43,214 bases of DNA, from NCBI GenBank assembly GCA_001823065.1, contig MHTJ01000002.1:8318-51531 (forward strand), in the 5' to 3' direction. The position numbers and the translations under genes were made by a program. The DNA comes from Candidatus Vogelbacteria bacterium RIFOXYD1_FULL_44_32. GTDB taxonomy: Bacteria; Patescibacteriota; Minisyncoccia; Phycocordibacterales; XYD1-FULL-46-19. Below, piece by piece: positions 38,027 to 43,214 of the stretch. Under the pieces are notes generated by a model. The model saw only the letters and a program-made list of their open reading frames with translations, was not told the origin of the DNA and did not search any database. The stretch's first letter is position 1; each line of letters starts with the position of its first letter.

Positions 38027-38027
38027 A

Positions 38028-38203
38028 GGTCACTCGCCTAGCTTCCGTTTCAAAACACATCGCCACACCTCTAGAGGTGTGGCGATTCTGCTCCAGTGGG
38101 GCCGTTTGGCCTCGCGGCTACTGCCGCAAAATTTTCCAAAGGCCAAAACCCTGCCGACCTACACCTCCGCAAGGTTTTGAAAGGGAACTAGGCTCACTCG
38201 GAC
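38028..38203 (+). repeat. Structured intergenic element C (~176 nt)
   Basis: It is the reverse complement of elements A and B and begins 1-2 nt after the rpmB stop. The outer stem pairs 38036-38056 with 38174-38193. Inner hairpins are at 38059-38086 and 38114-38127. Confidence 0.7.
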
Positions 38204-38258: not shown

Positions 38259-38654
38259 TTACGGACTACGCAAACAAATTATCTCTATACCGGGGATACT
38301 TCTCAACTTTTCGAGGAGCTCTCGGGCTTGGCTCTCTTGTTGTTTTCTGTACTCTTCCCTGTCTTCCTCCTGTTCTTTAATCCAAAGTTCAAGAGAATAC
38401 AGAGCACAACATTTTGGACACTTCACCTCTGGGACTTCCCGATAGATAGGAGTTTCTGAGTAGCCAGAGCCACCGAAAATCGGGTCTTGGACATTACACA
38501 CAAACTCCAAACGGTTTTGATAGACCAAGGTTTCAGCACAATGTGGACACGTCGCCCTCATCGGGTAGGGTTTAGTGTCCGCATTCCTTCGCGAGACAGC
38601 CCCCGCACCTTGATAGGGGTAATCTTCTTCGACTTGCTTGGGTTCATCCGCCAC
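38259..38654 (-). CDS. Zn-ribbon protein with an acidic coiled-coil tail (SD-led)
   Basis: The ORF runs to 38783, but AAGGAGGTGA followed by 5 nt and then the GTG at 38654 gives a 131-aa product (MADEPKQVEEDYPYQ...). It has CPHC...CPKC motifs. The shorter start removes the overlap with the upstream gene. A hand count of line 38521 gives 32/60 GC. Confidence 0.55.
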   Translation of the reverse strand: MADEPKQVEEDYPYQGAGAVSRRNADTKPYPMRATCPHCAETLVYQNRLEFVCNVQDPIFGGSGYSETPIYREVPEVKCPKCCALYSLELWIKEQEEDREEYRKQQESQARELLEKLRSIPGIEIICLRSP

Positions 38655-38697
38655 TACTATCACCTCCTTTCTATTAAAGAAAGTATCATAAATATTT

Positions 38698-39432
38698 CTA
38701 AAGTACAGATACGCATTTTTTACAAGCAATATTATGGCCATCTGAAACAAATTCAATTGTTCCTTGTATAGCGGTGCTAACAAACGGGATTTTCATTTCT
38801 TTAAGTCGCGCTAAAACATCTTGGTGGGGGTGGCCATAGCGATTGTCTTGACCAGCCGAGATAACTGCATATTGTGGTTTGACGGCCGACAAAAAATAGG
38901 CCGAGCTAGAAGTATGGGAACCATGATGGCCCAATTTTAAAACATCGGCCTTTAAAGCTGACCCATATTTACCAATTAAATAACTTTCTATTTCAAGCGG
39001 AGCGTCGCCAGTCAAAAGAAATTCGGTTTCACCATAGACCAAGCGCGCCACAATCGAAGCCCGATTGGTTTCCAAGCCCTGCATATCTCTCTCAGGAAAG
39101 ATAATTTCTAAAACTGCGCCGGCACCTAAATCGATGGTTTGACCCGCGCGCGCCGAGAGGCGCGCGCGGGTTTCTTTTTTAGCTTTCTGGTCAAATAAAA
39201 TAAAATCATCCCCCGCTTCGGTCTGTCCATTATCCATCACCCCCAACACCTGGTAACGATCCAAAACAAAAGGCAGACCGCCAATATGGTCAGCATCAGG
39301 GTGAGTAGCTATTACTAAATCTATTTCATGGTCATAAAAAGGTAGGGTGTGGCCCAAAGCGCGCAATATTTGTCGACCCGAACCGCCATCAATCAAGACT
39401 TGATTGCCATTTGGTGCCTCAATGAAAACGTT
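38698..39432 (-). pseudogene. comEC: 3' fragment of a ComEC/Rec2-type gene (metallo-beta-lactamase domain only)
   Basis: The translation has ATHPDADHIGG, LKLGHHGSHTSS and DNRYGHPH. In-frame similarity (VFIEAPNGNQVLIDGG) continues upstream of the first start codon to about 39432. It then stops at the AT-rich recombinase element. The N-terminal membrane domain is absent. Confidence 0.6.
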
Positions 39433-41182
39433 GGTTACACAATACCGTATTTGTAAGCTGAGATTGCTCTATTTTATTATGGGGTGATGTGTAATCTCCG
39501 TTAGCACGTTGCTTACACAATCCATCCGTTTCAGAATCTTTAATTACATCCGAAAAAGAAAAGTGACTAGGGCCTTGAACTTTCAGTTGAACATCTGCAA
39601 TAGTTTTATCTTTACTTATTATAATTCTTTCTACGACCAAATGTATTATCGCCGCTTTTTGTTCGTATGTGGCGACTCCAAAACCTACAGATATTTTTTT
39701 ATATACTTCAACTAAATCTTTTTTAGCTTTTTCTACATCAACCTTGTCTTTATTTAGTTCTTTTTCGAAAACCAATATTTCTTTTTTAAGTGAGTGCTCC
39801 TCATCTTTAATTATTAACCTTTTTTTGTTGTATTCCTCACGACTTTTGAACAATGTCCCATTTACATACACTTCATCTATCCTCTGTAGTTTTTTTTGAA
39901 CTTGAACAAGTCTAGCTTTTTTTACTTGAATCAATGTATATATTTGGCTAATTGTTTTGCCAGACTTTTTAACAGCAGCCTGTAAGTTACCAACAACGTA
40001 ATCTGGATTATTAAACAGTCCGCCTAAAGCGTCCCAAATTTTATTAAGTTTTGTCTCGGCAATCTGTCCACAAGACTTACAACGGTTGTCTACTTCTAAC
40101 ACCTCTCTCCACTTTGCCTTCCTTGCTCCGTGGTAAAACTTAAATGGATTTTGCGTGTCCTTCTTTGCGTTTTTGGTTGAAGCAAACATCTTCTTGTTAC
40201 AACCCCCGCAAATAACTAGTTTGTTATAAAGATAGTCATTCTTAATATTTCGAGCAGCAAACTCTCTATTTTTTAACAACTGTCTCTGACAAGCCTCGAA
40301 CAACTCGTCACTGACAACCTTTTCTGTCTTAAACTCTACCCAGTCGTCCTTATCATTTTGAACACTTTCATCGAGTAAACTAGTCAAACCTAAAAACTGT
40401 TTCTTAAATCGAAAGAAATATGTTGTGCCTGTAAATATTGGATTAGAGATAATCTTCGCTATCGTTTTTTTATGCCAGTAACCAGACAACTTTTTGCTCT
40501 TACTTTTTCGCTTTCTTTTTGTATAGCAAGGTACTCCCATTTCGTTCGCTCGCTTCTGAACAGAAGTTAAAGTCATACCCTCATCCACTATCCATTCCAT
40601 AAACTTTACAACCCATTTCGCTTCTTTTTTAACCACAATTAGTTTTTTTGTATCGGGGTCTATATCATAACCATAAGGCGGAGTCCCCCAAATCCATTTA
40701 TTCTCTCTAGCTGCCATCCTCCTTCCACTCGATGTCCTCTCTTTTATTGTCTCGCGCTCTAATTCTGCTAAAGCAGCTAGTGACTGCATTACATACCTAC
40801 CGTGAGGGGTTGCAGTATTAAATGGCTCAGTAATGGAGCAAAAATCAACAGCATTATCAGTAAGCCTCTCCACACCTCGAATTGTTTCATAAATCTTTCT
40901 AGCGAAACGGTCTAACCGATAAACTAAAACGATATCGAATCCCCCTCTCTCCGCAGCTTCAAATAGTTTACAAAGTGCTGGGCGCTTCTCTATGGGCAGC
41001 GCCCCCGAGAAACCCTCATCTACGTACATATGTTTTTCTTGGTCAAAGTCATATCCCTGAAACTGCGAATAGAGAATAACCTTTTCTTTTTGATAAGGTA
41101 GACCATACCCCTTTATTTGTTCGTCCGTTGAGACTCTTAGATATGCAGCAGCCCTAATAACTTTTTCTTCTTTTTTTTCCAT
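39419..41182 (-). CDS. Large serine recombinase (phage-integrase type)
   Basis: The 587-aa ORF has an N-terminal resolvase catalytic domain (AAYLRVSTDEQ, VYRLDRFAR). A recombinase domain follows, then a Cys-rich zinc-ribbon segment (CGGCNKKM...CKSCG) and a long coiled-coil region. Confidence 0.88.
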   Translation of the reverse strand: MEKKEEKVIRAAAYLRVSTDEQIKGYGLPYQKEKVILYSQFQGYDFDQEKHMYVDEGFSGALPIEKRPALCKLFEAAERGGFDIVLVYRLDRFARKIYETIRGVERLTDNAVDFCSITEPFNTATPHGRYVMQSLAALAELERETIKERTSSGRRMAARENKWIWGTPPYGYDIDPDTKKLIVVKKEAKWVVKFMEWIVDEGMTLTSVQKRANEMGVPCYTKRKRKSKSKKLSGYWHKKTIAKIISNPIFTGTTYFFRFKKQFLGLTSLLDESVQNDKDDWVEFKTEKVVSDELFEACQRQLLKNREFAARNIKNDYLYNKLVICGGCNKKMFASTKNAKKDTQNPFKFYHGARKAKWREVLEVDNRCKSCGQIAETKLNKIWDALGGLFNNPDYVVGNLQAAVKKSGKTISQIYTLIQVKKARLVQVQKKLQRIDEVYVNGTLFKSREEYNKKRLIIKDEEHSLKKEILVFEKELNKDKVDVEKAKKDLVEVYKKISVGFGVATYEQKAAIIHLVVERIIISKDKTIADVQLKVQGPSHFSFSDVIKDSETDGLCKQRANGDYTSPHNKIEQSQLTNTVLCNQRFH

Positions 41183-41874
41183 ATTATTTTAAGTTACATT
41201 TTCTAATACCTTATTAATTCTTTTTTGTCCCTTTTAATAATTAAAGGACAAAATAACCTGCAGCAATACTCGACTTCTACCTTTGAATAGCCCAAAGGTA
41301 GTAAAACTTAGCTGATGTGACGAGGGTAATGAGTAGTCGTATTTTGGCACCTTTAGGAAGAAGACCTTAAAGCTCATAACAATCTTCCGACATAGCCTCA
41401 ACACCACCCTGAAGTACTGCGGTGCTTATCAGAGGCAGGGTGAGAAGTCGAACACTCATTTTCCCTGCTTTCGCATAAACACCTCAGAACTCCTTTTTAT
41501 TTCCAGAAAGCGGCACGCTTCAATGCTCACTAGCTGTTTTGACAGAGAATCTTTTACTTCGTTTTCCCTGAATTTGAAGGTTCCCCTCGATTTGACTGCG
41601 TGAGCAAATCTTTACAATGAGATATCCAATATCTCCAAAAGACGCAAAAACAATTCAGAGTCCGAAGATTTATCTCCCGACAAAAACTTAAGTTCAACCT
41701 GAATGTCGTTGTTGCATTTAGACTTACTCATATAAAACAAATTGAGCCTCCAGGCGGTGACATCCTGAAGGCTCAATGCGTGTCACCGCTAACCACTGAA
41801 GGTTATGATGACAGTAACAATCTATTTTATTTTGCTATACCTCTTTTACTGATAGTAATAAATGTCACAAAAAA
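41183..41874. other. ~690-nt region without ORFs of 60 aa or more, rich in hairpins, upstream of the recombinase gene
   Basis: Apart from 41780-42010 (+), which only enters the right edge of the region at 41780-41874 and which I reject as antisense to the real gene 41875-42618, no ORF of 60 aa or more occurs here in any frame. The structures I could trace:
- hairpin at 41226-41252;
- hairpin at 41277-41301 (9-bp stem);
- mutually exclusive stems 41405-41411/41436-41442 versus 41435-41440/41463-41468;
- 9-bp long-range pairing 41270-41278/41443-41451;
- a terminator-like hairpin at 41744-41775. Confidence 0.5.
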
Positions 41875-42618
41875 TTATTTTTGCTTATATCTCGACATAA
41901 TCTGCCTGACGTTATCTACTGATACTTTATCTCCATATAAAAATCGCATTAATTCAGCAATAATCGCATTTTTGGACATCCTAATAAGCCGTTTTTCACT
42001 GCTTAAATAACTTCTTAATACATCCTTAGACTTTCTAGACAAAGAAGCGACTCGTTCGTCTCGTAGTCTGTTTACCTTCATCCTAATTCTTTTTTTAACT
42101 TTTTGGTTATTTTTTTCACCCAACGGCACACTTATAATTTCCTCAATCTGGTCCCAATTATATTCAACATATTTTTTTACGTCCGATACTTTGGCTCCCT
42201 CGTGTATCAACAAAGAAACATACTTTTTCCCACTAGCCCTCCAGATAGGTTCTGATGATTTGTAGGTTCCTTTATTGGACGGATTTTCAATTGAGCATCC
42301 ATAAAACATATGACCTTCAGCAATAGCAACCTCTGGAGTAAGTCCATCAACTATGTAAGACGATGCCACGTCGTGAGCGGAAGGTGGTAAGTCATATCTC
42401 TTAAGAAACTCAGCAAGTTTAACTTCGGCTTTAAGTTTTCTTTCAGGGTCTTTCCACTTGGTATCCAGTATCTTCATAGGGTCGTCAGCGAACCCGTTTT
42501 CTGGTATCTCATTATTCTTCCTAAATTTGATAACGTCATTTACAAACTTCTTACTCCGTAGTAAGTCCAGAAAAACTTCATACGTCTTCTCTGTCACTTT
42601 TTTTGATTTTTTAACCAT
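41875..42618 (-). CDS. Hypothetical protein of the integrative element
   Basis: The 247-aa ORF is Lys-rich and AT-rich. The C-terminal segment (SKNAIIAELMRFLYGDKVSVDNVRQIMSRY) could be a helix-turn-helix. I recognise no family. Confidence 0.55.
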   Translation of the reverse strand: MVKKSKKVTEKTYEVFLDLLRSKKFVNDVIKFRKNNEIPENGFADDPMKILDTKWKDPERKLKAEVKLAEFLKRYDLPPSAHDVASSYIVDGLTPEVAIAEGHMFYGCSIENPSNKGTYKSSEPIWRASGKKYVSLLIHEGAKVSDVKKYVEYNWDQIEEIISVPLGEKNNQKVKKRIRMKVNRLRDERVASLSRKSKDVLRSYLSSEKRLIRMSKNAIIAELMRFLYGDKVSVDNVRQIMSRYKQK

Positions 42619-42724
42619 AATTTATTTACTAGAAGAGTAGCCCAGCTCAGTTTCAGTCCAACATTCTAAAAACAATCTAGACTATTGGCCATAAGGACTC
42701 TATTTACTTCCGTCAAATAAAAAA

Positions 42725-43024
42725 CTAATTTGTCCTAAATTTTGCACTTAGAATCAGAAATAAAATTGCTGCAATTACATCAATAATAACCCAGGTTCCC
42801 TTAGCAAAAGTGACGGCAGAAATAGGATTAAAGATGATTGCCAAGATTATCATAATGACACTCCAGCCTACAAGATTTTCCTTGTAAGCTCTGTGGGCAT
42901 TGATTACTCCAGTCAAAGATACAACCCAGCGTAGCACTTGATAGTAGCCGTACGGCCAAATTGAAGGCACAGCCAGCAGAAGCATTATCCCAGATATAAT
43001 TGAGAGGGTTTTAGCTATTTTCAT
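42725..43024 (-). CDS. Small three-TM membrane protein of the integrative element
   Basis: The 99-aa ORF is strongly hydrophobic, and I recognise no family. Confidence 0.5.
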   Translation of the reverse strand: MKIAKTLSIISGIMLLLAVPSIWPYGYYQVLRWVVSLTGVINAHRAYKENLVGWSVIMIILAIIFNPISAVTFAKGTWVIIDVIAAILFLILSAKFRTN

Positions 43025-43214
43025 TTTTGTAACATTGACCAGTCGAGATAAAAGCGTCTGTCAATAGCGTGACGACTTCTACATAGCTACTATCTAGATA
43101 GGAACTTTTAAACAACATCCCGTGGGGCTCTTTTGTGGTTACTGTGACAACTTCTCCTGACTCCTCTAAATTTGAGGGGTAAATGTCACAGGGCTTACTA
43201 TCACATCTACCTAA

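Follow-up and report, generated by a model that had tools for sequence, protein, structure and literature searches.

Probable insertion of a large serine recombinase element into a separately encoded ComEC-type nuclease gene in a Vogelbacteria-like Patescibacterium

Bacteria of the candidate phyla radiation (CPR), or Patescibacteria, are considered to rely on DNA and nucleotides taken up from outside, with ComEC among their most widespread systems. Elsewhere, host genes are known to be split by elements that carry a large serine recombinase (LSR), for instance A118 and phi10403S in comK of Listeria, and SPbeta (recombinase SprA) in spsM and skin (SpoIVCA) in sigK of Bacillus, for which programmed excision and its regulators have been shown experimentally. 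The current study concerns a stretch of 43,214 nt (the window) from Candidatus Vogelbacteria bacterium RIFOXYD1_FULL_44_32 (contig MHTJ01000002.1, positions 8,318 to 51,531). At this locus, a 10,937-bp LSR element has very probably integrated, by recombination between attP and attB, into a stand-alone gene for a membrane-anchored, ComEC-type metallo-beta-lactamase (MBL) nuclease of a Vogelbacteria-like Patescibacterium from groundwater. As in Listeria and Bacillus, an LSR element splits a host gene that precise excision would rebuild.

By target, the closest described systems are streptococcal. Phi1207.3 (Tn1207.3) and Phi10394.4 integrate at a GA dinucleotide in streptococcal comEC and carry serine recombinases (PMC4260502); together with Tn1207.1, found like them in comEC/celB, they resemble the window's element in placing a serine-recombinase element at a specific dinucleotide within a DNA-uptake gene (PMC4260502). 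The streptococcal elements are 52-59-kb prophages or defective transposons of Firmicutes whose core is GA and whose target is a fused comEC, whereas the element described here is 10.9 kb long, has a TT core and no recognisable phage genes, and occupies a separate MBL nuclease gene in a CPR host; the recombinases of the streptococcal comEC elements are not close to the window's LSR. Competence genes are strongly enriched among LSR targets (Durrant et al. 2022, PMC10083194), and the LSR clusters of that study likewise share one conserved target gene, although the target it highlights is a Mg-chelatase/ATP-dependent protease and comEC is not named once in its main text. By sequence, the closest characterised LSR is the TP901-1 integrase, which has the same architecture of resolvase, recombinase and zinc-ribbon regions at approximately 27% identity. 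The att sites of TP901-1 consist of a 2-bp core flanked by imperfect inverted repeats. Set against TP901-1, the attP described here overlaps the 3' end of the integrase open reading frame (ORF), so that host DNA supplies the stop codon. Our literature searches turned up no account of an element in CPR whose target is the stand-alone MBL gene. The locus adds a clear new case to a known pattern, the targeting of competence genes by LSR elements.

Two junctions and a restored reading frame

The host side of the junction in the window is a 3' fragment of the MBL gene (38698..39426, minus strand), comprising codons 49-290 and the stop codon. The ORF called within it (38698-39396, minus strand) encodes 232 aa from an internal TTG at 39396 and contains both the HPDADHIGG and the GHHGS motif, as a first-pass annotation of the window had recognised in assigning it to the MBL part of a ComEC-type protein. 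The Pfam Lactamase_B match to this ORF begins only at profile position 43 of 196, and therefore the domain is truncated at its N terminus and lacks the first strands of the fold. Upstream of the TTG, the in-frame translation reads ...CVTNVFIEAPNGNQVLIDGG. The whole fragment is colinear with residues 49-290 of relatives of 285-292 aa, and homology to these intact relatives ends at the Phe codon at 39424-39426. The annotation had similarity ending near the recombinase stop codon, which holds for this endpoint; the V, N and T residues further upstream, which it had read as part of the gene, are encoded by the element's own arm. It had also described a switch to about 25-35% GC at this point. A drop does exist but is smaller: GC is 45.7% in the window's host part, 38.1% in the whole element and 37.4% in the element part inside the window, and only the first 500-nt bin is as low as 31.6%. 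The junction is spanned without mismatch by contigs from two runs of a single sample and, separately, by a JGI assembly, and depth in the Logan contigs is equal on its two sides (host 20x, element 23x).

The far end of the element was reached by an exact-sequence look-up of one of its cargo proteins, which led to L001, a public Logan contig of 14,375 nt in which both element ends are present and whose 5,149 nt in common with the window match it at 100% identity (window position = 52441 minus L001 position). A JGI contig, L002, is likewise identical to the window. Along L001 lie, in order, a 503-aa channel gene, an ORF for a 79-aa transmembrane (TM) protein with a hairpin terminator, a 50-codon ORF, approximately 10.9 kb of low-GC cargo, the LSR gene and the 232-aa MBL fragment. 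The 50-codon ORF encodes MQDSWRWRWSFLFLLASIGLLIWLLVFWSTTGSKLKVSFFDIGQGDAILT followed by a stop codon, with a TM helix and the motif FFDIGQGDAI. The first-pass annotation had predicted that the 5' part of the gene, with its GQGD motif, would lie beyond the element's other end and outside the window, and had proposed a rightward extension; that extension places the 5' fragment exactly there, 10,937 bp from the junction in the window, a distance equal to the length of the element. Together with attL, the fragment occupies window-equivalent positions ~50355-50507.

Both junctions can thus be read directly. The attL site is ...GGCCAAGGGGATGCTATT-TT-AACGTAGGCTACACAATACCG... and attR is ...CGGTATTGTGTAACCAACGTT-TT-CATTGAGGCACC..., the latter at 39404..39447 on the minus strand, with the host B' arm at 39404-39424, TT at 39425-39426 (minus-strand reading) and the element's P arm, CGGTATTGTGTAACCAACGTT, at 39427-39447. 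Joining the host flanks over the shared TT yields an intact ORF of 290 aa, and the attB rebuilt in this way bears out the claim that the gene was split by integration of an LSR element. The joined protein aligns with its relatives of 285-292 aa without a gap at the junction (...GQGDAI-FIEAPNGNQ...), is 61-69% identical to the three closest of them, and regains Lactamase_B coverage from position 4 to position 195 of 196. It corresponds to the C-terminal third of ComEC, matching TIGR00361 at positions 418-663 (7e-41) and residues 501-789 of the ComEC chain 30bt_A in PDB (E 6e-36), the last TM helix included. The rebuilt attP is a 44-bp palindrome in which 19 of 21 positions pair around the non-palindromic TT; an independent repeat search describes the element's termini as 21-nt inverted repeats with 90% complementarity. 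The attB site is weakly palindromic. We infer from this arrangement that the crossover would fall on the TT that opens the Phe codon, between an attP that forms a near-perfect 44-bp palindrome over the 3' end of the LSR gene and an attB that would be the stretch coding for the protein's most conserved N-terminal motif (GQGDAI-F-IEAP).

The gene order on L001 changes the identity of the interrupted gene. The annotation had taken it for a fused comEC that had lost its membrane channel domain; this did not hold, as the channel is a separate, intact gene and only 50 MBL codons lie at the far end, and a fused comEC was rejected as a candidate. The 503-aa upstream gene carries DUF4131 and Competence domains (8e-49) and is an intact ComEC channel, matching TIGR00361 at positions 21-378 and also TIGR00360. 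Since the joined protein corresponds to the C-terminal third of ComEC and the 503-aa gene to its channel part, ComEC is encoded here by separate channel and nuclease genes, which is the native state of the lineage. With the channel in a gene of its own, the split gene is a ComEC-type MBL gene and not comEC proper. Neither here nor in relatives were channel and MBL found in one polypeptide. All 120 top homologues of the MBL piece that were listed, among thousands, are stand-alone proteins, nearly all of ~280-300 aa, and those named among the matches listed come from Vogelbacteria, Yonathbacteria and other Patescibacteria. The stand-alone MBL gene agrees with the report that CPR essentially lack the ComEC-MBL fusion (Meheust 2019, PMC6744442). 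That the MBL domain of ComEC acts as a nuclease is established (PMC8579336).

Uninterrupted loci in relatives, a comparison that had also been suggested, agree with an insertion. In the three closest (L005, L006 and L007), a channel gene, a 77-78-aa ORF, an intact MBL gene of 285-292 aa, an M50 protease gene, a small ORF and rpsL follow in the same order, with an extra unnamed small ORF between the MBL and M50 genes in two of the three, and the loci of L005 and L007 extend to rpsG and fusA. No recombinase lies at the MBL locus of any of the three. Because these loci share the gene order and hold an intact MBL gene without a recombinase, they are empty sites. The annotation had regarded stand-alone MBL proteins with the same N terminus, in relatives without a recombinase, as grounds against an insertion. 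The relatives' proteins do not share that N terminus; they are approximately 50 residues longer at this end, and hence represent empty sites and do not contradict an insertion.

Between the channel and MBL genes, L001 also encodes a 79-aa protein with a single TM helix (L001:1640-1879, window-equivalent ~50562-50801, outside the window). This protein is 74-77% identical in relatives, a conservation beyond that of the MBL gene itself, and is a candidate for a third subunit of split ComEC.

The recombinase and its clade

The LSR gene (39419..41182, minus strand) encodes 587 aa, with its last two codons and TGA stop in host DNA past the crossover. The protein has a Resolvase domain (PF00239, E 3e-33) and a Recombinase domain (PF07508, E 6e-15) and matches a PHROG integrase family (3.6e-91), while PF13408 gave no score. 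Across 28 homologues, the catalytic Ser18 in YLRVSTDEQ and the four Cys residues of the zinc ribbon (325, 328, 368 and 371) are invariant, and R16 is nearly so. The protein thus combines a resolvase domain bearing the catalytic Ser with a Recombinase domain and Cys4 region, at a size within the ~450-700 aa of the LSR class, and its att sites have the form expected of the ~40-50-bp sites of the class, with imperfect inverted arms around a 2-bp core and hybrid attL and attR. With its catalytic and zinc-ribbon residues intact, the LSR looks functional. Its best phage match is TP901-1 Int (26.7% identity); a single-protein search of IMG/VR returned no relative, and the exact attP had 0 matches in that database.

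The overlap of attP with the 3' end of the LSR ORF makes the length of the recombinase dependent on its state. In the integrated state, host ATTGA(A/G), which in the MBL gene forms Ile-Glu codons, gives the last two LSR codons and the TGA, and the stop codon lies 6 nt beyond the crossover (window 39419-39426; L001:13013-13022). In the free circle the ORF is predicted to run for 617 aa instead of 587 in the window's element, a difference of 30 codons, and for 577 instead of 552 in L009; in the circular L019 it is 633 aa long. Across the clade the free form would have 25-46 more codons. Upstream of the LSR gene and after a 247-aa cargo gene lies a spacer of ~690 nt (41183..41874, no strand assigned) that wholly contains no ORF of at least 60 aa and has no Rfam match; it may be the regulatory region of the integrase.

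LSR homologues at 38-49% identity are common in Patescibacteria. Gene contexts were gathered by exact look-up, from GTDB genomes and from metagenomes, and a maximum-likelihood tree of 61 LSRs places that of the window in a clade of 14 with a support of 100/100. Eleven distinct LSRs, the window's included and ten of them in the tree, directly precede the 3' fragment of an MBL gene, whose first residue is 47/48 in the 290-aa frame. Cases are the window (L001), L009, L010, L011, L029, L041, L042, L044, L045, L046 and L050 (labelled 'oth' in the tree), and L094 is a case outside the tree because its LSR is partial. The same codon is targeted by related integrases in at least 12 other CPR bacteria, and no MBL gene was found beside LSRs outside the clade in the contexts surveyed. 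The P arm is conserved in the clade as TATTGTGT-N-CACCGTn-TT, and the same motif occurs in 11 related attR sites. L009 carries both ends of an 8,360-bp element, and joining its flanks again gives an intact ORF. In L047 and L049, where the core is TA, the LSR adjoins an MBL 5' fragment (...FLDVGQGDSI and ...FLDVGQGDAI, each followed by a stop codon) on the opposite strand. The site is unchanged and the element inverted, as a palindromic core allows where the host codon is Tyr (TAY) and not Phe (TTY).

One member of the clade was found in a free form. The ends of this contig, L019 (12,616 nt), overlap by 36 nt. It matches L047 at 100% identity for 5,956 nt as far as the TA core, beyond which it continues into a P' arm. 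As the identity ends at the core and is followed by P', and as the contig ends overlap, L019 is a free and probably circular element with an intact attP. It encodes a Prim-Pol/AAA_25 replicase, a UvrD-type helicase, an Eco57I-type methylase and an intact 299-aa MBL protein of its own. That ComEC-type MBL gene (L019:11404-12303, minus strand) has a diverged attB equivalent (GCCGTG-TT-CATTCAGTCT), and it may serve as a spare that makes up for the gene split by the element; the window's element has no intact MBL copy of its own. In addition, two tandem attP-like palindromes, one with a TA and one with a TT core, lie in the 3' end of the LSR gene of L019 (L019:5947-6060; GTDB metagenome-assembled genome contig DATDYB010000015.1). 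The integrated twin L047 used the TA site of this pair, and with the tandem palindromes a single element may be able to enter target alleles with a Tyr codon as well as those with a Phe codon.

Consequences of integration and rival readings

We propose the following consequences. Integration leaves at the 5' end a 50-codon stub that keeps the promoter along with the TM anchor and GQGD motif, and at the 3' end a 242-codon piece without the gene's own promoter or start codon and without the anchor. Because the 3' piece lacks these three, the nuclease arm of ComEC should be off while the element is integrated, whereas the separately encoded channel gene stays intact. Precise excision would give the gene back; both in the window and in L009 a coding sequence is interrupted that excision would restore, as in other gene-intervening elements. 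The targeting is a trait of the whole LSR clade, which would use this conserved competence gene as a safe and widely available landing site, and the element may also gain from disabling DNA uptake.

Several observations weigh against this reading of a mobile, reversible insertion. Searches with PHROGs, Pfam and NCBIfam recognised no virion, packaging, lysis, conjugation/transfer or replication genes in the element, and no recombination directionality factor; apart from DUF6804, no cargo is common to the related elements of the clade. Neither an excised circle nor an empty site of this strain was found in the Logan contigs of runs X1 to X5, which hold the integrated form only. The exact joined 290-aa protein is absent from a collection of 15 billion proteins, and the truncated form of 232/234 aa is present on assembled contigs of 354,831, 653,094 and 688,001 nt. 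With only the integrated junction seen and the joined protein absent, the element appears to be fixed, or nearly so, in the sampled population. The same Logan contigs show no joints or loose ends at 39425; contigs drop rare variants, so rare excision could still occur. In all nine complete clade cases the 3' fragment is open (235-243 codons), and HxHxDH is kept in eight of the nine, which fits recent insertion and equally fits selection for restoration. Finally, the loss of nuclease function in this strain is one that we infer.

These observations give weight to rival explanations to differing degrees. That the locus is a dead, fixed remnant, with an element unable to excise, an MBL gene permanently inactive and a lineage in the course of losing it, is unlikely but deserves to be taken seriously: several assemblies hold the integrated form only, the LSR is the only recognisable mobility gene, and the element and its flanks have equal depth. 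Against it, the LSR has an intact ORF, the two att arms are intact as well, with 19 of the 21 palindromic positions paired, and neither half of the gene contains a stop codon or frameshift. The same intactness also speaks for a programmed regulatory switch, an arrangement that the first-pass annotation had raised. Here, in the manner of 'active lysogeny' or a gene-intervening element, host or element would time excision and re-integration and so turn the ComEC nuclease on and off, as with skin/sigK, SPbeta/spsM and phi10403S/comK. The ORF is exactly restored on excision, the gene halves and all nine complete 3' fragments of the clade are undecayed, the LSR is intact, one clade member is known in both integrated and circular form, and the LSR and the called cargo genes are co-oriented with the split gene, so that the host promoter would read into the element. 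We nevertheless regard a switch as improbable. Unlike the Listeria comK, SPbeta and skin elements, this one is represented by its integrated form only, in the runs and collections searched, and without a recognised directionality factor; both insertion orientations occur in the clade, with unrelated cargo, a better fit to opportunistic targeting than to a co-evolved switch; and recent insertion also predicts undecayed halves.

A bolder version holds that a CPR serine-integrase clade has co-evolved with the stand-alone nuclease gene as a reversible on/off device, with integrase forms set by the host and orientation set by the core. The integrase would exist in an 'integrated' and a 'free' form, with host DNA supplying the stop, which could bias directionality without a classical directionality factor, and the host allele's codon, Phe (TT) or Tyr (TA), would decide between directional and either-way insertion. 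We consider this device speculative and rather doubtful. It is exceedingly improbable that there was no insertion at all and that the window holds a naturally short MBL-only protein beside a recombinase, or an assembly chimera. Stand-alone MBL proteins are indeed the rule in this lineage, but at 285-292 aa they include the 50 residues absent here, and the absent residues sit exactly at the element's other end, so the naturally short protein was rejected; the chimera was rejected as well, since the junction is identical, at 100% identity, across independent assemblies. An LSR element integrated by attP and attB into the MBL gene is the reading that we retain.

On this reading, the nuclease component of CPR DNA uptake serves a recurrent mobile-element family as its landing pad, and CPR mobile elements would follow the logic of attacking the competence genes that is known in Firmicutes and Proteobacteria. 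Natural populations in which the nuclease arm is knocked out and the channel is intact would constitute a natural experiment on the role of the MBL nuclease. The clade also provides LSRs with precisely defined attP/attB pairs for CPR hosts, which could serve as integration tools, as CPR are only now becoming genetically tractable.

Element content and neighbouring features

The window contains 39427..43214 (minus strand) of the 10,937-bp element, and 7,147 more bases lie past its end. After the spacer, the cargo in the window consists of a gene for a 247-aa protein of unknown function with no significant family match (41875..42618), a gene for a 99-aa DUF6804 membrane protein (42725..43024; PF20619, E 3.4e-22) and the 3' part of a 168-aa ORF that continues past the window (43011..43214), all on the minus strand; throughout the element, the LSR gene and every called cargo gene have the orientation of the split gene. 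The DUF6804 gene is the sole cargo gene common to the elements of the window and L009 (51% identity), and because nothing else is common among the cargo of these elements, no conserved directionality-factor or replication gene can be named. The recognisable cargo includes an M78 (ImmA/IrrE-like) protease paired with a membrane protein, a T4 Imm-like protein (Imm_superinfect), DUF350, a secreted protein with an Excalibur domain and several TM proteins, in addition to DUF6804. With no virion, packaging or lysis genes recognised and being, at 10.9 kb, too small for a tailed phage, the element does not look like a prophage, and we describe it as an LSR-mobilised integrative island. Its relatives include the plasmid-like L019 and L010, the latter with Phage_rep_O. 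Rfam, promoter and terminator scans of 36.5-43.2 kb revealed nothing notable.

Outside the window, the element encodes a 440-aa cargo protein (L001:5002-6324) that belongs to a large unannotated family, with over 1,200 representatives; Pfam, NCBIfam and PDB sequences gave no match to it. Its AlphaFold model is confident (pLDDT 92.5) but has no significant PDB fold match; the C-terminal part bears a weak likeness to PD-(D/E)xK nucleases (HindIII, E 0.04; Hjc, E 0.16; also MGME1 and McrC), and Glu318 is invariant in the family. PADLOC gave a weak match for one of 40 aligned members, which is not the protein of the window's element.

On the host side, a 174-aa ORF without a family match (38259-38783, minus strand) overlaps the final 86 nt of the MBL gene; at its position, relatives carry other small ORFs, either of 70 aa on the opposite strand or of 131 aa. 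Further along, at 38027-38203, numerous contigs break and depth is 2-3x higher.

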